Sequence record: PQ900156.1 | Length of the DNA stretch: 64,000 nt | Strand: one strand, 5' to 3' | DNA from: Escherichia phage vB_EcoP_ShWW44 | Made by a program: the position numbers and the translations under genes | The notes under the pieces: generated by a model | What the model was told of the DNA's origin: nothing | Databases searched by the model: none | What the model saw: the letters and a program-made list of their open reading frames with translations, nothing else | In this document: in pieces, positions 33,721 through 47,958 of the stretch | How the letters are laid out: each line of letters begins with the position of its first letter | Position numbering within the stretch: position 1 is the first letter of the stretch

Positions 33721-34352
33721 CAACAACCGAACCAGTGTGCAGGAATACTCTCCCCTGTGCATTGGTTCAACTGAAGCTAATATGAACAAATTTACTATTC
33801 ACTGGCTCAATGGAAAGGTTAGTTCTTTCATGGGTGAAGAACCCGTTGAAGGAAAGAAAGTATTTCACATTGAATCGGAAGGATGCAAAATCTTAGTACC
33901 GTATGCTTGGTATAAAGAAGGTGAAGTAGAAGCATTAAAAAAGAGTAGTTAATATCGTGAAGGGTTCTGTTAGAATCCTTTGAGATAGGAACTCCTATCA
34001 TAACCTTTCTTAACTTAATCCTTGCCGTATGGCACTGACGCTAGGGTTTATGCCCATCCGTCAGGTAGACTATTTTAAGAATGGGTTATCACAGAAAATG
34101 TAAAGCAACATTCGGGTTAATCAATGGCCTCTCTCTATAGGGGCCATTTCTGAATCTTAGGCTATATCCCAAAGGTTAGTATCTTTGGGATAAGGCTTCA
34201 GATCCCTTATAAACTAACGCTCATGTTGAGCATAACACTAACCCCTACTGGCGGGTAATTCGATACGCTAGTCCTACAGCATCGAATTGTTAGGTCTTAC
34301 ATGCAACATAGGGTATAAAGGGAGGATTCGTCCCCTCCCTCCTATTATAATG

Positions 34353-34422
34353 GTCGGGGTAGCACGTAGGCATGTGCAGAAGGTCGCTACTTCTCTCGCT
34401 GGTTCGAATCCAGCCCCTGACC
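34353..34422 (+). tRNA. tRNA-like element 1 (non-canonical; isotype not assignable by hand)
   Basis: T-arm GCTGG-TTCGAAT-CCAGC; 7-bp acceptor pairing GTCGGGG/CCCTGAC with one G-U; D-stem GCAC/GTGC; short variable region; anticodon loop ambiguous. Confidence 0.35.
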
Positions 34423-34878
34423 TACTGACATCCTATCAATGAGTACATTAGGCTAACGTGCGGAGGTTTACACTGTAGCCGGTGTAGGTGGAGAAGACGG
34501 CAGGGTAGCTACCTGTGCTTAGTGTACTCTTTGATAGTTTTCGTAAGCGATTATGCGGTTTTTTAGAAATGAACCAATAACATAAATGCAAACGATGATG
34601 TTGTTCTGATGGCGGCGTAATAGCCTGTAAGTCAGCAAGGTCTTCCTATTCCTTGTAAATAAATTCGGCGCAGTGGCCCGCTGTAATTAATAATGGGCAC
34701 ACAACAGGTAAGAGCATTGGGTAATGTCAGCCTTGGTTCGAAGTCGAAAGACATGCGGTAATACCCAGCCAAAGTTCCAGTGCTCTTTCCGTTGTGGAAA
34801 TGCAAGCACAACAAGTCCAGACGATATCTGAGTGACTTTAAAAACAGATGGAGCCAGGTGGAATCCCTGGCAATCTAT

Positions 34879-34944
34879 TCCGGTGTAGGTACTAGTGTCG
34901 TGCACGGCATGAGTGTTCTGGTTCGAGTCCAGACGCCGGAACCA
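34879..34944 (+). tRNA. tRNA-like element 2 (T-arm + acceptor stem + encoded CCA; body too short)
   Basis: T-arm TCTGG-TTCGAGT-CCAGA; acceptor TCCGGTG/CGCCGGA; discriminator A then CCA; only about 63 nt before CCA. Confidence 0.3.
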
Positions 34945-34946
34945 AT

Positions 34947-35070
34947 TACCAGTTGCACGAGATGGCTTGGCATGTTCAAGTTTGGACTAAGTGTGACACC
35001 GCTAGATTGGAGGGCTGCTGCGGTAAGCTATAGACTCCAACCGGGGGTTCGAATCCCTCACTGGTAACCA
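34947..35070 (+). tRNA. tRNA-like element 3 (T-arm + acceptor + CCA, about 124 nt, possibly with insertion)
   Basis: T-arm GGGGG-TTCGAAT-CCCTC; acceptor TACCAGT/ACTGGTA perfect 7 bp; CCA encoded; starts 2 nt after element 2. Confidence 0.25.
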
Positions 35071-35172
35071 ATTCAAAGTAGCATTGCACTAATCCATCCC
35101 GGAGTTCAAAGACCAAACATGGAGCAGTGCTACTTTGAATTAGAAGAATTAAGGTGGGTCTGGTGAAGTAGA

Positions 35173-35265
35173 TAGGGTTCGATTCCCTCCGGTAGAGTAA
35201 TCTACTAGCGTGCTTGGTGCATGAATAAGACTTAATACTGGTGGTTCGATTCCATCCCCCACTAC
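35173..35265 (+). ncRNA. two further tRNA T-arm-like motifs (GGGTTCGATTCCC and GGTTCGATTCC, the latter followed by CCCCACT-A-CCA) without an identifiable 5' acceptor partner
   Basis: Read directly; spacing 67 nt, too close for two full tRNAs. Confidence 0.2.
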
Positions 35266-35794
35266 CAATTTGAGGTGTAACAGTTAAATCCAGTTGCCGG
35301 AAGTGCTATTCTAGATACGCTGCCAATGTGTGAACGGTAAGGCTGTACAGGACTCGGACTCCCACCTCAAACCAAAGTCGCCAGGTACTTATGGCAAACG
35401 GGTAGTAACGAACTAGTCATTCGTCAAACGCCCAACCTATTACGAGTCAGCAAGAACGCCTTCACTTAAACTTAAACAATATGAAAGCTTAACGCAGATA
35501 ATATGTAGGGGTATGTAAGGATTGCGAAGAAGGAGCCAGTTAAAGCCTGGCATGACTCACCTATTAATAGAGAACATAGTCCTGATTGCATTGCACTCTA
35601 AAGACAATGCCGGTGAGACAGTCCGGCACTCTAATTATTGTAAACATACCCACTGACGAGTGGGTATGAGTATGAGCAGACTATAATGCTCAAGTACAGT
35701 TATCTATTATCGGACTATCAATCCTGTTTGCTGGTACAAGCACCGGTGGTAATAGTTAACTGGCCTAGTCTCGTTAGCTGCGTTAAAGCTACTG

Positions 35795-35820
35795 AGTCCC
35801 TCTTCGGAGGAACTTTTTTA
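35795..35820 (+). terminator. rho-independent terminator (AGTCCCTC-TTCG-GAGGAACT + T-run)
   Basis: Read directly; ends the ORF-free region before the next gene. Confidence 0.55.
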
Positions 35821-35841
35821 TTTGAAAGTAGGAGAAATACT

Positions 35842-37104: not shown

Positions 37105-40100
37105 TTAGTTAGTAAGATTGAGCCAAGGGTTCAGGTTATGGGCACGCAAGCCTTGACCAAAACCGAAGGAGTAACCGAGGTTGCCCTGTGCAGCAATACT
37201 AAAGATGTTGTCCTGAATAGGCAAACCAACATTACCAAACATGGTAGGGGTTGGTGCTAACATAGCCATAGCAGCATGTACTGGGTTATTACGAATCATG
37301 GACACTGCAACTTTTGCAGAACGAATCTTAAAGTTGTAGAACCACATCAGACCAACACTTTCCATATATCCACGGAAGCGACCAGGTAAACGGTCATAGT
37401 TAATGAACTCTTCTGTTACACGTCCCAGTGCCTCTTCACGAGTCTTACCTTTACGCTGAGTCAGTTCATCATAGATGATTGCTTTAGCAATAAAGTCAGA
37501 GTACTCAACTGTCTTCTGGATACCCTGGAAGAGAGCAGTATCCTTAGGGATAAGTGCATAACGACCTGCGTTACGTACAGACTTAGGCAGCTTATCAGCC
37601 AGCTTATCCATGTACTCGTGAAGTTTACCTTCAGTAATCAGGATGTCATCACGTCCAATACCTGCGTCTGCAATTGAGGAGAACTCGCCAGCTTCCAGCA
37701 GAGGCCAGATACTTAAACGCTTATGGCTATCCGTGATGGACTGAATCTCGGCCTTCAGCTTACGAATCTGGTTCGGGTTAGTAGCTGCACGTAATTCTGC
37801 TTCTGCATCTACCTGACGCAGACGAGATTTCAGGTACTGGTTAATCTCAGCAGTCTTCTGTGGAATGCTCTTAGCAATGTTCTTAACAGGCACACCACGA
37901 GCAACCATCTGGTAAAGGTTAGCCAGGAAGTTAACAGCAGGTACAACTACTGACTTAACCACAATCAGAGTCTTAGCTTCTTTAACTAAGTTCTGAACCA
38001 GGTTCTCACCACCCATTACATACTTATAGGCACGGTTACCAAATACACCCATCATAGCTTTCTTGAAGGTATCCAGTGTTTCTGGGGACCAGCGAGAATT
38101 ACCAGACCAGGCATCACCAACAGAAGCTGCACGATAACCCAGAGCATCATTGAGCATGTCACGACGTACCCACAACTCACCTGGGCCAAACAGACTTTCT
38201 GCTTTCTGACGAGTTTCACTGTTCATCAGTTTAAGAGCATCAGCAGTCACTGGGTCCAGTTTAGAACCAAGAAGGTTAACGTACTGGGACTTATTAGATG
38301 CAGACATCTTAATGTCGTTCTCATACATGCTATGCAGGTTCTCAATCAGCATATCGTTGAAACGCTGAGCCTTAGCTTCTTCCACCTGGCGACCACGCCA
38401 TACACCGATTGCACGAGCAAGATGGTTCTCACCCTCAATATGCTTCAGCATGTTAGGGTCAATAGATTGCTCATAAGCAACTACATTACCATTGGCATCA
38501 TATACAGGCAGCAGTGGTTCATTGCCACGTTCACCACGAGCCTGTGCTTTAGTGATACGGTCTACGGAAGGCTTGTCAGTAATACGACCAGCTACCATGG
38601 TTCCCATCGTAAAGCCTGTACCAAGGTCTACACCACCAGCAGTATTTCGAACGTTCTGCAGGATACCTTGTGAGAACGGAGCCTGTGCCTGTACTGGTGC
38701 AAAGTAGTAGCTACGTGCTGGTCCACGGTTAGCAGAGCTACCTTGATATGTACCCAGACGTACATAGGATTTCTCAATCAAATCAGCAAACTGACTATCT
38801 TCAGCAACAATCAGGTTAACACCTTGCTTGCTATCACTAGGTATATATCCTTTGTACTGGTTCAAGGTTGCACGACTATCAGACTTAGCTTTAGCCATTT
38901 CATCTTTACGCTGACCAACCAGGTAAGAAGTAGCAAAGTCCATGCCTTCAATTTCTGTCTGAGCCAGTGAAGATAACACCTCACGGTCAGTCTTATTCAT
39001 TGCTTCCAGTGCATACAGCGTAATGAGTTTATCCAGTTGAGCTACATCTACAACGGAACGTGTAGTCTTACGTTCACCCAGTAAACGAGAAATTGCAGTA
39101 GCATTACGCAGCAGGTTATTACCAACCGTACCATTAATCATGTACTGAGCCAGTTGCTTAGATTTACGATTAATCAGAGGCCAGTTACGTCCAGCTTGTT
39201 TCTGCAAATCTGCTTCCAGTTTATTAACCTCACGGTCAACAATCTTTTGGTCAGTCAGCAGGTCACGGATTTCATCCAGAGACATAGTATCTCGCAGAAC
39301 AGCTAAGTCAGTTTTACCCATACCAGTATGCATTGCTTTCCACTCATCATTGGTCAGCTTACGGCTGAACTTAGATGCGATAGTGGTAGGCAAATGTTCA
39401 CGGAACTGTTGACGGTCAGCCTGTACCTGTGCACGTACTGCTTTAATCAAATCATATACAGAAGCATTGCTCTTAGTACGTCCGATTATGTCATTAACCA
39501 GGTCATGGAAAGGCTGCCATACTTTACCCTGGTTCATTGCAGCCATAACACCTTCAGCTACGATTGAACCATTCTTCTCTGTAGCAATAGCAGCTACCAA
39601 TTGTGCAGCATGAGCAGCACCTTTAACCAATGGGTTCTTGGTATTAGCTGCAACTTCACGAGCACCTTCCAAAGCACGGGTAGACAGTACATCAATAGAG
39701 TCCACCAGATACTGGTTAGCACGGTCGATAGCATTACCAGTAGGTGTAGCAACGGAATCATAGAAGGACTCTGCATTAAGACTGGTCTGCATGATTGTCT
39801 GAGCCAGTGCATCCATACCTTCCTGTACGTTAGTAGCTTTAGTATCACCTGCTACACGAGCATTCAGACTAGCCATTGCAGCAGTACCGATGTTAGTCAG
39901 CATTGCGTCAACAGTATTGCCAGATTTCTTATCTGCTTTCATAACAGGAATGTCAGCCAGTACCTTACGTACTTCTTCACTTACCATTGCCAGACCAACA
40001 AAGGTAGGCAATAAAGAAGAGCGACCCTGTGCATCAAACTCAATGTTGTTAGCACCCATGATGGTATCGAACTTCTGCTGTGCATAGTAACGGTCAGCAG

Positions 40101-43100
40101 GGTTAGTACTATCTGGGTCAGCCATGAACGATTCAACAGTTAGGTTCTTAGTAACATGTGTGTAGTATTCCTGTGCACGAGCCATAGCAGCAGGGTTAAT
40201 AGCAGCCTCAGTAGCCAGTGCAGCAACGATGTTAGTGAAGAGACGCTGTTCCTGCATATTCATGGTGAAGCCATGGGCCTGAACATCACGGGTTACTTTG
40301 GTTGCATTTACTACTGCATCAGAGAACTTACCTTTACGAATTACTTGCTGTACTGGTTCTGAACCAATGTAGTCAGTAATCAGCTTATCAAAGGTCTTAC
40401 CTAACTCTTCCAGACGAGTATTGTCACCATATGCTTTGTTATGGAACAGGGTAGTGTCTTTGGCTACAGCAGCAGTAGGAGCTTGTCCACGCATTACTAC
40501 AGCAGAGTTAAACAGTAGGCCAGAGAACATATCATCTGCATTAGCCGGAGCTTTCTTACGTCCAAATACCAGACGCTTGATTGCTTCATATACAGCCTGA
40601 ACCATAGCTTTAAGTGCAGTGGTTTTCTTCTGCTTACCAATCAGTTCACGGTTGGTTAAACCCCAGGCCATGTACTCATTTAGTGCAGCAGCTTTAGCCA
40701 TTGCTGGTTCAATAAAGCCATTGGACAGGTGACCGTTAATGGTATTGAGTGCATCAGCATATGCTTCACGTACTGCCGGAGATTCATCCTTAACATCCAG
40801 AGCACGAAACTGGTTCATCAGGTCTTCAATATTCTGAACTGCTTCATTAGGAGTACCTTCATAATGAGCCAGTACAGATTCAAAAGTAGAGGCATGTACC
40901 AACTCATGAACCAGAGTCTCTAAGGAAGGGGTAACTAAATAGATGGTCTTATCTTCAAAGTTAGTCCAGCCGTATGCATTACCAGCTTCAGCAGCTTCAA
41001 TATCTTCCGGTGCTGGGCGAGTAATATTCTTCTCAATAGCATAGGCATCCAATTGAGCAGGTGTACCATAAACAACCTTATAGTCTTTAGCAGCGAGAGA
41101 TTTCTGTATTTCTTTCAGTACTGCTTGCTGTTCAGGAGACATCTCTTTAGCCAGCTTAGAGATAGCAGTATTAGACAGCAGACGTACACCAGACTTCAGT
41201 ACACGACCAACCTGTTCCATTGCTGGTACTTCTTTCACTGGTTCTGCTTTAGTAGCACGTACTGCATCACGACGCTTGTTTAATTCAGCATCAAACAGTT
41301 CGTTTAGCTTAGCTACTTGCTGGTCTACAGTAAGACCTTCCAGAGAGATTTTACCGTTGTTCACATAAGGAGCACCAACAGCAGCCATCTGGTCAACGGT
41401 GACTTGTACCTGGTCCATTACCTTGTGACGAATATCTACACCCAAAGCAATGTTACGCAGATTGCGTTCAATTAATGCAATACCAGAATCTTTAATCATA
41501 GAAATTTTATAATCTCTATCACCATCTACTCTGGTAATCTGAGCACGCTGGTCATACTCCAGAGCAGATTTAGCGATAGCCTGTTTGGTTTCATCAGACA
41601 GTTTGCTGAAATCTACGTTCTTATGAAACTTAGCAAAGGAGTCATAAACATTCTTGATAGGATTACCCTGCCAGGAAGTATATACAGCCTCATTAGCTTT
41701 ACGACTTGCGTCAGTGATGTCATTGATACCAATGTTCATACCATCAAAGATTTTCAGGGTATTCTTCGGAGCACCTTTCATAGTAGAAAGGGTCTGCATC
41801 ATCATGCCATCACCAGTACCGATGGTCATAAACGGAATACCTGCAACACCTGCCTGTGAAGGAGCATAGATGCTCATTGGCACACGCATACGGTCATCTA
41901 AGTTGGTAGCCAATACTTGGTTAGCAACATCAGTATTCTCGCTACCAGCAATGTAGAAAGTCTGGGAACCAGTCTCAATCATTGGAGCCAGTGGAGATAA
42001 GTGATTCTGAATTTCATTCAGTTCTTTCTGAGTTAAGAAATCACCTTTCTTCCATGTTGGGTCTTTTTCTTTTTCTGCCAGTTTAGCCTGTACTGCCTGT
42101 TGGAACATATCCTGCAATACCAGTGATTGAATCTGAGTAGCCTTCTGCAAATTTTCAGTAGAGTACATCAGACCTTCACCAACAGTATTTCGGATACCAT
42201 GTCGCATTGGCTCAACGAACAAGTGAAGCATGTTCTCTTGTAAGTTCTTCAGAGCATTACCGGATACAGTAAACTTCTGAGGGTCTAATTTACCGGTCAG
42301 AGCACCTTCTACCTGCTGAATAGACAACTCACCTTTACGCATAACTGGAACATTGCCAGTTAGTGCTTCCATAGAAGTAAGGAAAGTATCCAGCATAGCC
42401 TGAGCATCGGCCTCAGACGCAGCCTCCTTACCAAACATAGCCATAGCCGGGGAAATGCTAGGGTCAGCAGCACGGGCTTGCAGAACGTCACTGAAGCGTT
42501 CATAGATGGTATCAGTAATTGCACTAACCATTTTGCCAGCAATACCACGAGCACCTGAACCATAAATGGTAATGGTCAGTGGGTTTTTAGCGATACCGCG
42601 TTTCAGGTCCAGAGTACCATCTTCCTTAAGATTGAAGTCTTTAATGAATAGGTCCATTAACTTCTGGAGATGCTTCATCTGGTTCGTAACAGGAACGTTG
42701 TTACGATAAGTATTACGCAATTCATTCAGATGCCTTTGTAGACTATTAGTGGATGCTTCATACAGGTCAACGCTGTCCTCATGCGAATGATGCTCGTTCA
42801 TAGTCTTGCCAGCTTTACCGAAGAACAAGCCACCTTTAGCAGTATTCTTAATCCAGTCTGGAGTGAACTTACCACCCGTCATTAATACCATTGCGTTGAT
42901 TGGTCCGTTGGTTACACCATCAGCTTCAACGTACAGTGGGGTATTAAAGTTGGCACGGTCATCACTGTTAAGATAACAGGCATACTCCATCAGAGCCATG
43001 AGAGCTACAAATGATTTATCATTACCCAAAGGGGTCTTCAGAATATCCACAGCATCAGTAGGTAAGTGCCCAGACTTATCAAACTCAACCATCATATCAA

Positions 43101-46100
43101 CGGCAGGTTTCAATTTACCTTCCAGAGCTTTAGTCAGCTCATCCGACATAACTTCACGGGACATTTTATGAACTTTGATACCCAATGCCTGAGCCAGTCC
43201 AAGCTGGAAGTCAGAGAAGTCTTGACTGTTTTCATTACTTAAGTCGATGGTAGAGAAAGTTGGTAGGATTGCTTCACGTACCAGCTTAGCTGATTGTGGG
43301 TTGTTCTTACCAAGCATCTGCATACGACCTACACGGGTCATGTTGTAGCCGTAGTGAATAGGTGTAGTGCCAATGTCTTCTCTCTGTTCCTTAATCTGAT
43401 TGATAACACCAAACAATGGAATCTTTGCATGGACTACGGACAGGTTCTTACCTTCCAGAGATTTAGCAGTATTCACATTCAGCAATTCTGGGGTAAGAGC
43501 ACCAGCACCCATCAGTTCCAGAATGTTGTCACGACCCATTGCTTCATAGAAGTTAACCATAGGCATATGTACACGGAACTCTGTAGCCTGTTCTGCCTTA
43601 AGGGCAGCTTTCTGTTCCGGGGTATTCTTAACAGCCGGGTTACGTAACTGAGTTTGAGCCACAGAAGGGATATCATCACCCAGGTACAGTTTCTCTTCTG
43701 GTTCTAAAAGGACAGCTTCCTCAATAGCAGTAGGGAATTTGTTAATGGCATCGTTATCATCTAACTTCTCAATGGTATACAGACCAACAGTCTTATTAGA
43801 TTCTGGGTCAATCTCAGACACATCCAGCATAGACTCTTTAACTTCACCCATCTCAATGAGAGAAGACAGAATCTCTGTAGCCATTGCCATTGGGATACCC
43901 TTGGTATAACCCAGAGGTGCATTAGGATTACGATTAAGTCCCCAGTAAGATTCAATCTTTTGAGCCAATGAGTTAGTAGCTTCAACCAGAGTCTGAGCAT
44001 TCTCGAAGTCAGCCAGAATACCTTCAGGTAACAGGGATGCTTCTACACCAGTAATAGCAGCTACGTCTTTCATGTCTTTAATGGCAGCATTCTGTGTAGC
44101 AGTTAATCGCCATTGCAGACCAGCAAGTACAGCAGTCTCTAACAACTGGTCATTGAACTTAAAGGTGTCACCATCTTTCTCTACGATGTTAAGTAACTTA
44201 CCACCTACCCAACGGTTGGCCTCAGTACCTTCTGCAAAACGTTTACCAACGTTCTTGTTAGAAAGGAACTTAGCAAGACGGTCAGACAGAGTAGTCTTCA
44301 GAGTTTCACCAAAATCAAACAAGTCCTGATAACGCTTAATCACATCACTTGTGAGAGCGTTATTTTCTTTTTGAGTAAATGCTTCAAAGCGAGCAGCAGA
44401 AGACAGTGCTTTCTTAACATCAGTCAAAGGAGACACAGAACCAATGGTACGAGACTTAGGTTCTTCTGGCAGAGAAAATGCTTTAAGGAACTGGTTCGGT
44501 GTCTTGTCATTGTTATAGACAGGGAACACTGTTTCCATTTCCGATAGAGGTTTACCACCAACAGTATAGTCTGCTTTCAGTTGAGCCAGTGATACTTCTT
44601 CTTTCTCAACGTTATTGGTATTAAGCCCAGATGTATCTACACCAATCTGAATCAGTGCATTGTTTGCTTCTACGAATGATTGAACAGTATTGAATTGTTC
44701 AGCAGTTAGCTTCTGATTATCAAACAATTGCAGAGATACGAACGGTTGCTCACTACCTTTATAGAAAGTAGAACGTACAGCACCAGTATCCAGAGACATG
44801 TCACGATAACCATCATGACCAAATACGTCAGACAGACTGATATGGTCGCCATTGGAACCAACAACAGTACCATCAGCGAATAGCCATGGACTATCTCTAC
44901 GGTCACCATACTTATTAAGAGTATCTTGTGAAATAGTATTCTCTTTCACATAAGAATCTCTTTCAGATTCAGTAGGCTGTTCAACGATATCCTGTTTTTC
45001 AGACTGGTTCTCAGGTTCTTTTACAGTCTGTGGTTTAGACTCTTTAATAGTAGGTTCTGTTTTAACAGCTTCACTAACAGAGGGTTTAGTCTGTACAGTA
45101 GGGGTAACTGGTTCCTGTTTCGTAACAGGAGTTTCATCAACCTGATTCACTGGTTCATTAGTCTGTTGGGATTGAGCAGCATCAAGATTGCCCTGACGGA
45201 ACTCTTTAACTACCTGGGCAGCAGGTTTGTCCAGACGTGAATCCAATGGGGTAACTTTCACATGAGAAACATTAAGCTCCGGGTAAGCCGTAGCAAGTGC
45301 GTTAGCAATATCAGCTACGGTTTTGGCCTCCAGTCCTACTTGCTGGGCAAACTTAACAGACTTGGTATCATACGGATTGACACCGAGGCCAGTACGACTA
45401 CGTACCCATTCACGCGAGGGAGTAAGAGCCTGATAATGGACAGACTTATTCTTATCCGCATTCCCAGAAATCAGATGCTCATTCAACGCTCCGACCTTAT
45501 TCTGCATGTGCTGGGCGAACTTCATAAAGTCGTCGAGATAAGCGGAGGCCAAATCGAAGTTACCAGAGTTGTACGCAGAACGAATGCGTTTAGCATGTTG
45601 CAACGCAGAGTACTGGCCTTCATTAGAACGAGATTCGTCGGTTTTAATCTGTTTACTAACAATGTCTTGAGGACGTAAGCCTAGTTCTTCTGCTTTAGCG
45701 TCAAATTCTCGTGCTCCTTGCAATAGAGCAGCAGCAGATTGCAGGGCAGCACGCTGACGATTCCCCAGTGTAATCTTACCTTCACTTGCATGTTTCAGAA
45801 CCATGTTCACTGAATCTGCATCCAGTACTTCTGGAGACATATCAGCAGCCATAGCAATGTTGTTTGCCTGGGCTTGGTTAGCTTCTTCGGTAGCTTTCAG
45901 TTTACCTGCTTCAGCCTGTTCCTGAATCATGGAATGGATGGCACGGAATGCACGGAGTACCTTCGGTGTATTCTGTACATTAGCCATCAGACCAGAGAAC
46001 TGGTCAACGATATTAGCAGCAGGAGAACCCTGTTCCAGATTAGCCAGAGCACCCGGGTCACGGTTAATGAAGCTATCCATAGACATAATGTTGTCATACA

Positions 46101-47892
46101 TCTGGATTGCAGCTTCCATTTGAACGTTAGGGTCTTCGGCAGTATTAACCAGGTCAGCCATCTTCTGAATAGCTTCAACACGGTTAGTGGAACCAGAAAC
46201 AGCTTCACGGATTGCTGGACTAGCTTGCTCCAGTTCTACTGGGTCAAACTTCATTACCTGAGTTAAGTCAGCAGCATACTGTGTAGCAGCAGCTTTCTCT
46301 TCAGGAGAAATATCCATTGCATCCACTGCTTCCTGAACAGTTGCTTGTGCTTGTTCTGCCTGAGCAGTAGCTTCTTGTGCAGCAGCGTTAACCGTAGCGT
46401 CTGATACAGGGGATGCTTGTTCGTTACGCTTAGCAACTTCTTCACCACGCTGAACCAGGATGTTAGTAATAGGAGAAGCTACTTTTGCTAGTGCCTTACC
46501 AGCCAAAGAAGCACCAGCCAGGGTAGTACGTACAGCAGGACCAACGGCAGCACCAGCAGCCTTAACAGTTGCACCAGGAGCTTGAGCAACTCCAGCAGAA
46601 CCAAAGCCATACAATGCACCAAGACCAGTTTGTTCACCCACACCTTTAAGCAAATCACGCTTAGCATCTACATTACCCTGAATTGCCTTGTTCTGTGCGA
46701 ACTGACTTGTACCAGACTGGATACCTTCTTCTACAGTCTCACGCAACATGTTAGAACCAGCACCAACCAGTGAACCTACCTTAAGTGGGTTAAGTTCAAA
46801 CTTGGATACCAGTGGACCAGTAAGAGCAGCAACCGGAGCAGTTAAGCCAGCAGCAGTGATACCTGTTTCAGACGCAGTTTGACGACGTGCTTCTTCAGGA
46901 GATAAACCATCTTTAATATGCTGTTGGTATACAGGGGATTTAGCAGCCAGTTCACTGAACGGCATTTCCATAATTTCATTAGCAGTCTGTTGGTATGCTC
47001 CACCAGCTTCCATTCCACCAATTGCTATAGCAGGCGCAGCAACACGACCAGTAGCCATTGCAACCTGTGCAGGACGTGAACCTAACTCAGCAGCTAGGGT
47101 AATACCCTTAACAGCTTTATCACCACCTACCATTACTTTACCGAGAGCAGATACACCACGGATAAGTGGACCACCGGTAAACAGAGAACCAACACCCTCA
47201 GCCAGACCATCTGTAGCAGCCATGCCATTGGACAAAGTGTTAGCAACTGAATCGTAAGCATCACGACCAATGCGAGACAGAGAAGCAACGAGTTCACTTT
47301 CTCCTTTATCAATATCCTGCTTATAGAGTTTCTCGTTTTCCTGAGCAGATATTACGTTCTGGTTCTGTACTACATTACGACGAGCATTCAGTGCATCAGA
47401 CTGTAGGTTGTGTACACCTTTATTCAACCAGTCAAGACCGGAAGCAATGGATGCCCCGGCATTATCATTGACCAAACCTGTACCAAGAGCAGCAATGCCC
47501 CCAAGGGTATTAGCAACACCAAGACCAACACCAGAAAGGGTATCACCAAGTGCTTCACCATATGTACGACTCTTAGTTAAATCACGACGAACAGCATTAG
47601 CTGCATTGACACGAGCATTGAGAATATCCATTCCTTGCTCATTGCCATACTTGTTTATGATTTCAAGAGGGGAGGCATTAGTAAAATCTGCCTGAATAGA
47701 ACCTGGTTCAAATGCACCAGCACCTAAATCACCGGCACGGCCTGCCTGTAACTGGTAGGCGTTCTGTGGGGTTAATTGGAAAGGGCTTTGCCCTTGTTCA
47801 GCTTGTTTCCGAGAGGTTGCAGTAGAGACATCGACTTGCTTAGCAGTAGTGATGCTGTCTGCGAAACCTGCCAGACGGTCAAATGTTGACAT
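37105..47892 (-). CDS. virion-encapsidated RNA polymerase (N4 vRNAP-like), about 3,595 aa
   Basis: Single ORF of about 10.8 kb, diagnostic for N4-like phages; motif-A-like DGVTNG; track start is TTG at 47910, ATG at 47892 has AGGAA SD. Confidence 0.9.
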   Translation of the reverse strand: MSTFDRLAGFADSITTAKQVDVSTATSRKQAEQGQSPFQLTPQNAYQLQAGRAGDLGAGAFEPGSIQADFTNASPLEIINKYGNEQGMDILNARVNAANAVRRDLTKSRTYGEALGDTLSGVGLGVANTLGGIAALGTGLVNDNAGASIASGLDWLNKGVHNLQSDALNARRNVVQNQNVISAQENEKLYKQDIDKGESELVASLSRIGRDAYDSVANTLSNGMAATDGLAEGVGSLFTGGPLIRGVSALGKVMVGGDKAVKGITLAAELGSRPAQVAMATGRVAAPAIAIGGMEAGGAYQQTANEIMEMPFSELAAKSPVYQQHIKDGLSPEEARRQTASETGITAAGLTAPVAALTGPLVSKFELNPLKVGSLVGAGSNMLRETVEEGIQSGTSQFAQNKAIQGNVDAKRDLLKGVGEQTGLGALYGFGSAGVAQAPGATVKAAGAAVGPAVRTTLAGASLAGKALAKVASPITNILVQRGEEVAKRNEQASPVSDATVNAAAQEATAQAEQAQATVQEAVDAMDISPEEKAAATQYAADLTQVMKFDPVELEQASPAIREAVSGSTNRVEAIQKMADLVNTAEDPNVQMEAAIQMYDNIMSMDSFINRDPGALANLEQGSPAANIVDQFSGLMANVQNTPKVLRAFRAIHSMIQEQAEAGKLKATEEANQAQANNIAMAADMSPEVLDADSVNMVLKHASEGKITLGNRQRAALQSAAALLQGAREFDAKAEELGLRPQDIVSKQIKTDESRSNEGQYSALQHAKRIRSAYNSGNFDLASAYLDDFMKFAQHMQNKVGALNEHLISGNADKNKSVHYQALTPSREWVRSRTGLGVNPYDTKSVKFAQQVGLEAKTVADIANALATAYPELNVSHVKVTPLDSRLDKPAAQVVKEFRQGNLDAAQSQQTNEPVNQVDETPVTKQEPVTPTVQTKPSVSEAVKTEPTIKESKPQTVKEPENQSEKQDIVEQPTESERDSYVKENTISQDTLNKYGDRRDSPWLFADGTVVGSNGDHISLSDVFGHDGYRDMSLDTGAVRSTFYKGSEQPFVSLQLFDNQKLTAEQFNTVQSFVEANNALIQIGVDTSGLNTNNVEKEEVSLAQLKADYTVGGKPLSEMETVFPVYNNDKTPNQFLKAFSLPEEPKSRTIGSVSPLTDVKKALSSAARFEAFTQKENNALTSDVIKRYQDLFDFGETLKTTLSDRLAKFLSNKNVGKRFAEGTEANRWVGGKLLNIVEKDGDTFKFNDQLLETAVLAGLQWRLTATQNAAIKDMKDVAAITGVEASLLPEGILADFENAQTLVEATNSLAQKIESYWGLNRNPNAPLGYTKGIPMAMATEILSSLIEMGEVKESMLDVSEIDPESNKTVGLYTIEKLDDNDAINKFPTAIEEAVLLEPEEKLYLGDDIPSVAQTQLRNPAVKNTPEQKAALKAEQATEFRVHMPMVNFYEAMGRDNILELMGAGALTPELLNVNTAKSLEGKNLSVVHAKIPLFGVINQIKEQREDIGTTPIHYGYNMTRVGRMQMLGKNNPQSAKLVREAILPTFSTIDLSNENSQDFSDFQLGLAQALGIKVHKMSREVMSDELTKALEGKLKPAVDMMVEFDKSGHLPTDAVDILKTPLGNDKSFVALMALMEYACYLNSDDRANFNTPLYVEADGVTNGPINAMVLMTGGKFTPDWIKNTAKGGLFFGKAGKTMNEHHSHEDSVDLYEASTNSLQRHLNELRNTYRNNVPVTNQMKHLQKLMDLFIKDFNLKEDGTLDLKRGIAKNPLTITIYGSGARGIAGKMVSAITDTIYERFSDVLQARAADPSISPAMAMFGKEAASEADAQAMLDTFLTSMEALTGNVPVMRKGELSIQQVEGALTGKLDPQKFTVSGNALKNLQENMLHLFVEPMRHGIRNTVGEGLMYSTENLQKATQIQSLVLQDMFQQAVQAKLAEKEKDPTWKKGDFLTQKELNEIQNHLSPLAPMIETGSQTFYIAGSENTDVANQVLATNLDDRMRVPMSIYAPSQAGVAGIPFMTIGTGDGMMMQTLSTMKGAPKNTLKIFDGMNIGINDITDASRKANEAVYTSWQGNPIKNVYDSFAKFHKNVDFSKLSDETKQAIAKSALEYDQRAQITRVDGDRDYKISMIKDSGIALIERNLRNIALGVDIRHKVMDQVQVTVDQMAAVGAPYVNNGKISLEGLTVDQQVAKLNELFDAELNKRRDAVRATKAEPVKEVPAMEQVGRVLKSGVRLLSNTAISKLAKEMSPEQQAVLKEIQKSLAAKDYKVVYGTPAQLDAYAIEKNITRPAPEDIEAAEAGNAYGWTNFEDKTIYLVTPSLETLVHELVHASTFESVLAHYEGTPNEAVQNIEDLMNQFRALDVKDESPAVREAYADALNTINGHLSNGFIEPAMAKAAALNEYMAWGLTNRELIGKQKKTTALKAMVQAVYEAIKRLVFGRKKAPANADDMFSGLLFNSAVVMRGQAPTAAVAKDTTLFHNKAYGDNTRLEELGKTFDKLITDYIGSEPVQQVIRKGKFSDAVVNATKVTRDVQAHGFTMNMQEQRLFTNIVAALATEAAINPAAMARAQEYYTHVTKNLTVESFMADPDSTNPADRYYAQQKFDTIMGANNIEFDAQGRSSLLPTFVGLAMVSEEVRKVLADIPVMKADKKSGNTVDAMLTNIGTAAMASLNARVAGDTKATNVQEGMDALAQTIMQTSLNAESFYDSVATPTGNAIDRANQYLVDSIDVLSTRALEGAREVAANTKNPLVKGAAHAAQLVAAIATEKNGSIVAEGVMAAMNQGKVWQPFHDLVNDIIGRTKSNASVYDLIKAVRAQVQADRQQFREHLPTTIASKFSRKLTNDEWKAMHTGMGKTDLAVLRDTMSLDEIRDLLTDQKIVDREVNKLEADLQKQAGRNWPLINRKSKQLAQYMINGTVGNNLLRNATAISRLLGERKTTRSVVDVAQLDKLITLYALEAMNKTDREVLSSLAQTEIEGMDFATSYLVGQRKDEMAKAKSDSRATLNQYKGYIPSDSKQGVNLIVAEDSQFADLIEKSYVRLGTYQGSSANRGPARSYYFAPVQAQAPFSQGILQNVRNTAGGVDLGTGFTMGTMVAGRITDKPSVDRITKAQARGERGNEPLLPVYDANGNVVAYEQSIDPNMLKHIEGENHLARAIGVWRGRQVEEAKAQRFNDMLIENLHSMYENDIKMSASNKSQYVNLLGSKLDPVTADALKLMNSETRQKAESLFGPGELWVRRDMLNDALGYRAASVGDAWSGNSRWSPETLDTFKKAMMGVFGNRAYKYVMGGENLVQNLVKEAKTLIVVKSVVVPAVNFLANLYQMVARGVPVKNIAKSIPQKTAEINQYLKSRLRQVDAEAELRAATNPNQIRKLKAEIQSITDSHKRLSIWPLLEAGEFSSIADAGIGRDDILITEGKLHEYMDKLADKLPKSVRNAGRYALIPKDTALFQGIQKTVEYSDFIAKAIIYDELTQRKGKTREEALGRVTEEFINYDRLPGRFRGYMESVGLMWFYNFKIRSAKVAVSMIRNNPVHAAMAMLAPTPTMFGNVGLPIQDNIFSIAAQGNLGYSFGFGQGLRAHNLNPWLNLTN

Positions 47893-47958
47893 AGCAAGAT
47901 TCCTGTTCAAACTTATATCGTATAAGAAGATTCACTGTACAGTAAGTGAATGTAAGAG

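Follow-up and report, generated by a model that had tools for sequence, protein, structure and literature searches.

RNase III stalks are familiar from the rRNA operon, where stems flank 16S and 23S, and from the R sites of the phage T7 early region; a typical RNase III substrate has about two helical turns, roughly 20 bp or more, of mostly continuous double-stranded RNA. The tRNA cluster of phage T4 is a compact array, butt-joined with 1- to 6-nt spacers, that holds tRNAs together with long tRNA-like stable RNAs, species 1 (rnaC) and species 2 (rnaD); species 1 RNA was reportedly cleaved in vitro by Escherichia coli RNase III in work by Paddock, Fukada, Abelson and Robertson in 1976. Here we compare these systems, as well as transfer-messenger RNA (tmRNA), with three long perfect hairpins (H1, H2, and H3) in a ~1.9-kb block free of open reading frames (ORFs), 33953-35841, of Escherichia phage vB_EcoP_ShWW44 (PQ900156.1); the whole 64,000-nt stretch that we analyzed is called the window. 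We lean toward the view that the hairpins are secondary-structure elements of a ~1.85-kb + strand noncoding unit made of exchangeable RNA cassettes, in which long closing helices would serve as processing stalks.

The segment 33900-35900 is 97.5% identical, at matching coordinates, to Escherichia phage St11Ph5, a Gamaleyavirus (Schitoviridae) of the G7C/N4-like group, and we place the window in the same genus. The perfect stems are as follows.

34165-34174/34183-34192, + strand: H1, TATCCCAAAG/CTTTGGGATA, 10 bp, 8-nt loop
35070-35083/35128-35141, + strand: H2, AATTCAAAGTAGCA/TGCTACTTTGAATT, 14 bp, 44-nt loop
35645-35654/35659-35668, + strand: H3, CATACCCACT/AGTGGGTATG, 10 bp, loop GACG (4 nt)

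An exhaustive inverted-repeat search of 33953-35841 (perfect stems ≥9 bp, loop ≤80 nt) returned these three stems and no others. All three had been listed in a preliminary description of this DNA, whose first stem, correctly given as 10 bp, moves from about 34164-34191 to 34165-34192, and whose third stem is 10 bp long rather than the 9 bp stated. The stems are not random: 500 dinucleotide shuffles contained a mean of 0.10 stems of ≥10 bp and never reached three, a maximum stem of 14 bp was reached in 0.2% of them, and 62 other segments of the same size from this genome had a mean of 0.24 such stems (maximum 2). RNAfold z-scores were −6.1, −7.4, and −6.0 for the H1, H2, and H3 regions; in each case, 0 of 200 shuffles folded equally well. 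The stems had been called unusually long for simple terminators, and they do not behave as such in a terminator scan, which called none of them. We rejected them as intrinsic terminators because no T-run lies behind any (the sequences that follow are AGGCTTCAG for H1, AGAAGAATT for H2, and AGTATGAGC for H3); the terminator of the block is another hairpin (35796-35823).

H2 is best read as a closing helix.

35070-35141, + strand: H2 as a cassette-closing stem, 18 bp plus 5 bp, insert of 26 to 36 nt

As noted earlier for the 14-bp repeat, H2 starts where a tRNA-like element ends, in the CCA at 35068-35070; the final A of this triplet is also the first base of H2. We call the element tRNA-like 2. 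The helix extends to 18 bp with one G·U (35070-35087/35124-35141), to which RNAfold adds 5 bp, UCCAU/AUGGA. In relatives, the H2 arms persist around four unrelated inserts of 26 to 86 nt; in PD205, Bas96, and K57, the insert has a canonical T-arm and forms a tRNA-like element, with H2 running on into its acceptor stem. N4 also retains a stem in this position, immediately 3′ of the tRNA-like 1 CCA: this stem of 25 bp encloses a T-arm, shares only the AATTC/GAATT base with H2, and has arms that pair at 17 of 18 positions. Within the genus, the H2 5′ arm is almost invariant; in the upper stem, a single change is two-sided (C-G to U-A) and several are one-sided (U·G to C-G or U-A). A mismatch at stem position 7 recurs at the H2 position in nearly all relatives, including N4 with its unrelated stem, and recalls the internal loops of T7 sites. 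We propose that H2 would act as a closing helix that starts at the CCA of tRNA-like 2 and encloses a short insert, exchanged in relatives, including for a T-arm-containing tRNA-like element. Such a helix would bury the 3′ trailer of tRNA-like 2, and a cut inside it would therefore be needed before CCA maturation.

Four unrelated inserts between the same arms would also be expected if the inverted repeats were recombination scars, or ends like those of miniature inverted-repeat transposable elements, of exchangeable DNA cassettes, with the arms providing homology for swaps and having no function at the RNA level. We consider this unlikely. It agrees with the high mosaicism of the block, whose modules are common to unrelated phage families, with the CCAATT junctions that recur at 34942, 35068, and 35265 (repeat family D4) and look like cassette boundaries, and with the mismatches tolerated in the lower stem of H2. 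Against it, the positions of the stems are kept in N4 and other families, where the arms differ in sequence yet remain complementary, which is unexpected if DNA homology alone mattered; stem energies lie far beyond those of shuffles, and there is no transposase or endonuclease gene in the block of the window.

The size of H2 (72 nt in total, like a tRNA) brings up a second reading, in which H2 would be what is left of a tRNA gene after decay (pseudo-tRNA) and the other stems would likewise be relics, with no present selection on any of them. The 5′ arm of H2 opens with TCAAAGT-AG-CA, similar to TACCAGT-TG-CA of the neighboring tRNA-like element (repeat family D4), the insert holds GGAGTTCAAAGACC, a degenerate T-loop-like string, and relatives have a T-arm element inside the same stem. 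We find decay highly improbable all the same, since a relic would not retain a perfect 14-bp stem; the 18- to 23-bp helix is (near-)perfect and identical to that of St11Ph5 where neutral sites diverge by ~3%, and neither ARAGORN nor Rfam reports a tRNA there.

Two further long stems, absent from the preliminary description, share the proposed design of H2.

34433-34537, + strand: stem A, 21-nt arms (34433-34453/34517-34537) that are 86% complementary, 63-nt lineage-specific insert
34700-34796, + strand: stem B (arms at about 34700-34720/34777-34796), CACAAC.AGGTAAGAGCATTGG/CCAGTGCTCTTTCC.GTTGTG, 56-nt insert

Both have an RNAfold z-score of −4.0. Stem A has other, still complementary sequences in PhAPEC5, KP13-27, and Det7; stem B, about 19 bp with a bulge and a U·U mismatch, keeps its position and covaries in sequence in DS8, Det7, FO1a, KP13-27, and Aioli. 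They may represent the same closing device, placed on either side of a tmRNA-like core described below. The likeness to RNase III stalks lies in helices of ~20 bp, made from the flanks of a functional RNA in a polycistronic precursor, often with an internal mismatch and without a U-tract. The differences are that the inserts here are tiny (26 to 86 nt), that H1 and H3 are shorter than typical substrates, and that no sequence relationship was found; the long stems resemble these stalks in form only. H2 (18 + 5 bp) and stems A and B (~19 to 21 bp) roughly reach the length of an RNase III substrate; H1 (10 perfect bp plus an imperfect outer 9) and H3 (10 bp) fall short. By analogy, RNase III cleavage is plausible for H2 and stems A and B only, not for H3.

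The unit that we envisage would lie between gp47.2 and the next ORF and extend from a candidate promoter near 33950 to a terminator.

33949-33976, + strand: candidate sigma-70-type promoter, TTAATA-16-TGtTAGAAT, consensus match
35796-35823, + strand: block terminator (intrinsic), GTCCCTC-TTCG-GAGGAAC, then T6ATTT

In St11Ph5 the terminator stem is perfectly paired; it covaries in N4 and in relatives, and its counterpart in PhAPEC5 is annotated as a terminator. Promoter-like sites are no more numerous in the region than in shuffles; 33949-33976 is weak evidence. All T-arms, CCA ends, and the terminator lie on the + strand, and the block is presumably transcribed as a single transcript. The array carries CCA-ending tRNA-like RNAs, long RNAs of the T4 species 1 type, a tmRNA-like RNA with a frame and pseudoknots, and unnamed modules, any of which may have functions of their own; many of these cassettes are closed by a long helix made from their own flanks. 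Helices of 18 to 23 bp would let each cassette fold independently, and the same helices could act as double-strand-specific stalks that separate the cassettes of the precursor through host RNase III, followed by exonucleolytic trimming to the CCA, in parallel with rRNA operon stalks and T7 early RNase III sites.

Conservation is consistent with such a unit. From 34327 to 35443, only 4 substitutions in 1.1 kb separate the window from St11Ph5, compared to ~3% of sites in the flanking genes, which makes the block the best-conserved part of the neighborhood, under stronger purifying selection than the neighboring genes. The idea that the region is a structured noncoding RNA thus holds up for the region as a whole, which has tRNA and tRNA-like elements between + strand genes, conservation far above that of its flanks, and a strongly covarying module. 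An equivalent ORF-free block lies between gp47 and gp48 of N4, with three long stems, four tRNAs, and tRNA-like 1. The set of modules varies among 12 Gamaleyaviruses, and modules also occur in T1-like, Ackermannviridae, Felixounavirus, T4-like, and Kuravirus phages. Neither the block nor 17 related loci had a match at the Rfam gathering score; we dismissed microRNA, U2, CRISPR-DR, and STnc100 matches as chance or as terminator look-alikes.

Several observations speak against processing stalks in a noncoding unit. The lower stem of H2 has an uncompensated A·C or A·A at position 7 in most relatives; the window, St11Ph5, ECBP1, and Bp4 alone have it fully paired, and the perfect 14 bp is therefore special to these four phages. 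The H2 5′ arm may be conserved for some other reason, and N4 could have acquired its stem independently, as a cassette, in which case the difference in sequence would not be true covariation. For the H2 family, 154/162 pairs are kept when the opposite strand is counted, compared to 149/162 for the + strand. H1 has single stem-breaking changes in two phages with no compensation within the genus; H3 is unconserved and, at 10 bp, too short for a typical RNase III site; and the candidate promoter is a consensus match alone and overlaps a paralog of H1. Compensatory changes in related genomes, the check named in the preliminary description, are found for H2 (the N4 stem and one swap within the genus) but not for H1 in the genus, and the 10-bp form of H3 is limited to the window and St11Ph5; under this test, the three hairpins are not equivalent. 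Stems of differing sequence that are kept at fixed positions in N4 and in other families are explained less well by the rival readings.

The strand counts also bear on whether the stems work as DNA, since pairing on the + strand is no better than on the − strand. N4 virion RNA polymerase (vRNAP) uses DNA hairpin promoters of the early region, at the left end of the genome, with 5- to 7-bp stems and 3-nt purine-rich loops on the template strand. This phage is N4-like and has a virion RNA polymerase gene (37105-47910), and H1 and its paralog, with their TATC...GATA arms, look like a palindromic site; one might accordingly think of vRNAP promoters, of a replication origin or cruciform, or of a palindromic operator. 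We regard such DNA-level roles as the least probable of the readings weighed here. vRNAP promoter hairpins were rejected because the stems are 10 to 18 bp with loops of 8, 36 to 44, and 4 nt and lie in mid-genome, near the SSB/late region; arms that differ between copies and phages while staying complementary point to a folded nucleic acid instead of a sequence-specific operator, and H2 is embedded among tRNA-like RNAs on the transcribed strand.

H1 belongs to a leader (33953-34350) with the following elements.

33953-33987, + strand: H1 paralog, TATCGTGAAGG...CCTTTGAGATA, then a small hairpin GATAGG-AACT-CCTATC
34123-34148, + strand: G+C-rich leader hairpin, 10 bp, AATGGCCTCT/AGGGGCCATT
34154-34203, + strand: H1 including its imperfect outer arms, perfect core 34165-34192
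34183-34350, + strand: leader module common to phiEco32-like (Kuravirus) phages, with invariant TTGTTAGGTCTTACATGCAA and a hairpin GGGAGG/CCTCCC at 34320-34339

The H1 core is nested in imperfect arms of 21 nt (34154-34174/34183-34203), and its stem is nearly invariant in 12 Gamaleyaviruses, with substitutions clustered in the loop; the outer imperfect stem is broken in three phages. The paralog sits 205 nt upstream, and it is this copy that is common to the Kuravirus-like phage Bas87. A small hairpin, GATARGG/CCYTATC, comes after each copy of H1 and overlaps the base of that copy, and the motif CTTTGRGATARG has exact copies at 33978 and 34183 and no others. In the paralog and the Kuravirus-like copy, the hairpin is kept loosely (TATC...GATA base and AAGG/CCTT core), with a 3×3 internal loop. 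H1 is thus a conserved element, constrained in sequence as much as in pairing, within a duplicated part of the leader where alternative hairpins may overlap; a role as a regulatory or processing signal is more likely than one as a stalk.

Alternative pairing in the leader would be accounted for if the stems were 3′-end protective or attenuating hairpins, which block exonucleases or cause RNA polymerase to pause or partially terminate, with H1 as a leader switch. The H1 3′ arm can pair instead with 34202-34218, and a second hairpin, ATAAGG/CCTTAT (34190-34210), overlaps the H1 base; in Kuravirus phage 4E8, the counterpart of the 34320-34339 hairpin, in the module downstream of H1, is annotated as a terminator plus promoter, and both H3 and the hairpin at 34123-34148 are short and stable and contain G+C. 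We nevertheless judge protection or attenuation improbable: no U-tract follows H1, H2, or H3, H3 is not conserved, and H2 and stems A and B are far longer than protection needs and enclose functional-looking inserts.

Among the relatives compared, only the window and St11Ph5 have the 10-bp form of H3. ECBP1 and Bp4 have a 5-bp CATAC/GTATG stem at the site, pSb-1 has almost no stem, and other members of the genus have a different module with a 6-bp hairpin (ATTCCC/GGGAAT). To judge from this comparison, H3 is a lineage-specific lengthening of a small hairpin in a variable 3′ part, most likely with a stabilizing or structural role only. A conserved module precedes it.

35576-35634, + strand: conserved module with hairpin GCCGG/CCGGC (35609-35613/35623-35627)

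The stem of this module covaries, to ATTGG/CCAAT in N4 and to CACTGG/CCAGTG in UE-M6-type phages. Neither the window nor St11Ph5 has an insertion near 35568-35573, where relatives have one or two canonical tRNA genes: tRNA-Ile(aat), a tRNA of 85 nt, or one whose type is undetermined.

The tmRNA-like core between stems A and B deserves attention above the hairpins, which on their own, as structural stems of a phage tRNA-type gene cluster, would be of modest interest.

34535-34702, + strand: tmRNA-like core, with motif TAGTTTTCGT (34535-34544), A-rich ATAAAT, and resume-like GCA
34588-34617, + strand: frame ANDDVVLMAA, 10 codons, with stop TAA (34618-34620) in a helix-5-like loop
34636-34640/34651-34655 with 34645-34648/34665-34668, + strand: H-type pseudoknot 1
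34670-34673/34681-34684 with 34676-34679/34695-34698, + strand: H-type pseudoknot 2

As in tmRNA (SsrA, including two-piece forms; RF00023, RF01850, and RF04321), an A-rich AUAAAU precedes a GCA resume-like codon; the signal and frame (34582-34620) read ATAAAT, then GCA AAC GAT GAT GTT GTT CTG ATG GCG GCG TAA. The 10-codon frame, AN(D/E)....(A/V)A, resembles the tmRNA tag ANDENYALAA (examples in the family are ANDDVVLMAA and ANDEQFLAVA), the stop codon falls in a helix-5-like loop, and two H-type pseudoknots follow. Unlike tmRNA, the core lacks a joined G3·U70 tRNA-like domain, and its Rfam scores stay below gathering thresholds: tmRNA_permuted and beta_tmRNA matches on 34517-34669, whose score comes from the tag region, are sub-threshold (RF04321, 31 bits versus 47; RF01850, 16.7 versus 84; 20 to 34 bits in relatives).

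The core is a structured module. In a 70-sequence alignment, with slid partners and 500 shuffles as controls, 91.6% of cells were paired, compared to 36 to 46% with slid partners, and two-sided changes occurred at 17/24 pairs; 0/500 shuffles reached the observed values. Two-sided changes were found in 13/17 pairs of the two downstream pseudoknots, and the helix-5-like pairs covary too. Both pseudoknots lie 3′ of the frame; an equivalent of tmRNA pseudoknot PK1, 5′ of the frame, is not established. The core is present in most Gamaleyaviruses and, by blastn, in at least ~680 phage records of unrelated groups, where it is almost always unannotated; carriers include T1-like DS8, Klebsiella siphoviruses, Ackermannviridae, Felixounavirus, Aeromonas phiA050, and Erwinia Aioli. 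It also occurs in many metagenomic viral contigs (IMG/VR), which we fetched with an anchor that excluded the tag: the frame is exactly 10 codons plus a stop in 87/88 distinct sequences, with 20 peptide variants. In DS8, a TTGACA-17-TAGATT promoter lies immediately 5′ of the core.

ARAGORN called no tmRNA in the window or related loci. In many carriers, neither ARAGORN nor Rfam nor a custom scan for acceptors and T-arms turned up the tRNA-like domain of tmRNA; in many of these phages, the scan revealed no acceptor/T-arm element from −700 to +1100 nt of the core. The adjacent tRNA-like 1 has C3-G70, not G3·U70. Among the carriers scanned, a G3·U70/ACCA element 3′ of the core occurs only in Felix O1-type phages. 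In Salmonella phage FO1a and Felix O1-like IMG/VR contigs, this tRNA-like element is D-armless and has G3·U70, A73, CCA, and a UCU "anticodon"; it starts about 155 to 185 nt after the start of the frame and bears alanine identity marks. Since the frame (a resume codon after an A-rich signal and a stop in the helix 5 loop) and the two downstream pseudoknots are there, and a tRNA-like domain and a gathering-level Rfam score are not, the core is to be called tmRNA-like, not a tmRNA.

Two ways to complete it in the window were rejected. A one-piece tmRNA that joins GCCGGUG (34479), as 5′ strand, to the 3′ half of tRNA-like 1 was suggested by the double occurrence of CCGGTGTAGGT (34480 and 34880) and by GGAGAAGACGG, which resembles tmRNA GGAUUCGACGG; as a general solution it is ruled out on four grounds: the stem A insert, which houses the 5′ copy, is lineage-specific; the first pair would be G·A; 3:70 is C-G; and relatives with other stem A inserts retain the tag module. 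A permuted two-piece tmRNA with the upstream "tRNA-Ala" fails because that module is missing from about half of the relatives that keep the tag and because no complementary 5′ acceptor strand follows.

The most conserved motif of the family, (UA)GUUUUCGU(C), or (TA)GTTTTCGT(C) in DNA, is exactly antisense to nt 96-107 of E. coli ssrA, the D-E-N-Y tag codons, (G)ACGAAAACTA; its counterpart in the window is 34535-34544. It is the longest complementarity to E. coli ssrA in 66/70 family members, and its flanks vary by lineage yet each extends the pairing with ssrA, in either direction; for one sequence, the significance of this complementarity is only about 3%. The family could be a "tmRNA without tRNA half" that docks on host tmRNA, to substitute its own tag or to block host tagging, with the long stems, including H2, as stalks that release it; we consider this quite improbable. 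For phages, the current paper on the tmRNA database counts 79 tmRNAs and a single RNA with a tRNA-like domain only (PMC11915505). The CDS (coding sequence)-less tmRNA-like RNA of mycobacteriophage DS6A inhibits endogenous tmRNA when expressed in E. coli (PMC11915505). Like the core, it is a partial tmRNA encoded by a phage, but it keeps the tRNA-like domain and has no tag frame; the core of the window is the reverse, with frame and pseudoknots kept. We found no description of such an element in the literature (full text and supplements) on phage tmRNA-like RNAs, tag peptides, and the N4 tRNA region. ARAGORN and the Rfam thresholds miss the core; should it act in or against trans-translation, it would be a new phage route to manipulate ribosome rescue and a natural system for asking how a tag template loads on the ribosome.

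The rest of the array consists of tRNA-like elements and other cassettes.

34352-34423, + strand: tRNA-like gene, tRNA-Ala(cgc) according to ARAGORN, no encoded CCA, U3-A70
34813-34878, + strand: conserved module, AGTCCAGACGATATCTG...CCAGGTGGAATCCCTGG, also in N4, DS8, and Klebsiella and Salmonella siphoviruses
34879-34944, + strand: tRNA-like 1, 66 nt, acceptor UCCGGUG/CGCCGGA, T-arm, ACCA end
34947-35070, + strand: tRNA-like 2, 124 nt, 7-bp acceptor UACCAGU/ACUGGUA, T-arm, ACCA
35153-35267, + strand: double-T-arm RNA, 115 nt, T-arms at 35176-35186 and 35243-35253, ACCA end
35269-35371, + strand: stem-enclosed module, closing stem UUUGAGGUG/CACCUCAAA

About half of the relatives lack the tRNA-Ala, the sole ARAGORN call in the block; in Rfam it matches tRNA-Sec best (30 bits versus a gathering score of 47), no RF00005 match was reported in the scanned block, and the call is doubtful. 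tRNA-like 1 is identical in sequence in N4; it has no D-arm, and a 5-bp hairpin replaces the anticodon arm. The acceptor of tRNA-like 2 covaries, from C3-G70 to U3-A70, in ECBP1, UE-M6, and PGN829.1. ARAGORN and Rfam found no cloverleaf at H2, 34879-34944, 34947-35070, or 35153-35267, which have acceptor, T-arm, and CCA but aberrant cores.

By architecture alone, as non-tRNA RNAs of >100 nt with a tRNA-like 3′ part, 34947-35070 and 35153-35267 are of the T4 species 1/2 type: T4 rnaC (139 nt) ends in a canonical T-arm, as do these 124-nt and 115-nt elements, and the tRNA cluster of T4-like phage VR5 holds a homolog of 35168-35258. The T4 cluster differs in that the window is almost without canonical tRNAs (one doubtful call) and in that the tmRNA-like module and stem-enclosed cassettes of the window are not known in T4. 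We rejected homology of the long tRNA-like RNAs to rnaC/rnaD, as the T-loop alone matches. In Dhakavirus VR5, the counterpart of 35168-35258 is 79% identical, lies between tRNA-Met and tRNA-Arg, and is unannotated; it also occurs in VR25 and TH15. YrlA (RF02553), like the cassettes of PD205, Bas96, K57, and N4, has a T-arm module at the tip of a long stem and no free CCA, but the window has no Rsr/Ro gene and its own H2 insert no T-arm. Rfam gave no YrlA match at the H2-position cassettes, the sole match (19.5 bits, chance level) lying over the N4 tRNAs, and membership was rejected for lack of a supporting match.

The closing stem of 35269-35371 is GUGGGAUG/CAUCCCAC in N4; like those of A and B, it varies in sequence between phages and keeps its complementarity. 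The interior (35276-35364, 89 nt) is 98.9% identical to N4 (EF056009 33231-33319), far above the general similarity of N4 to Gamaleyaviruses, and ~84% identical to 149-kb Klebsiella and Enterobacter myoviruses; it has no Rfam family. Stem B with its insert (34696-34797) is 98% identical to Salmonella phage seszw, and the 34813-34872 module (AGTCCAGAC...) is 85 to 91% identical to Klebsiella SopranoGao-type and Salmonella 9NA/Segz_1 siphoviruses; these identities are evidence for recent cassette exchange between phage families. What has been an "ORF-free block" of N4-like phages, left empty or filled with probably spurious small ORFs, is a conserved modular RNA locus whose cassettes move between unrelated enterobacterial phage families, and its stem-enclosed design leads to testable predictions on RNase III-dependent maturation of phage small RNAs.

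St11Ph5 annotation of the block consists of one tRNA, and N4 annotation of its own block is empty. In phages nithesis and Bas96, automated annotation places six to nine tiny "hypothetical protein" CDSs in the homologous block, on both strands; they overlap conserved RNA elements and are probably spurious. We rejected hidden small proteins in the block of the window because its five largest ORFs have no Pfam match and overlap conserved RNA elements with covarying stems. Upstream of the block are the SSB gene, gp46, gp47, and gp47.2, all on the + strand; downstream are three small + strand ORFs and then the 3601-amino-acid virion RNA polymerase on the − strand. Just 5′ of the gp47.2 start, at 33733-33766, lies a hairpin, CAGTGTGCAGG...CCTGTGCATTGG, in whose place relatives have other complementary stems, GTCCCCTTT/GAAGGGGAT and GTGGGCTTT/GAAGTCCAT.

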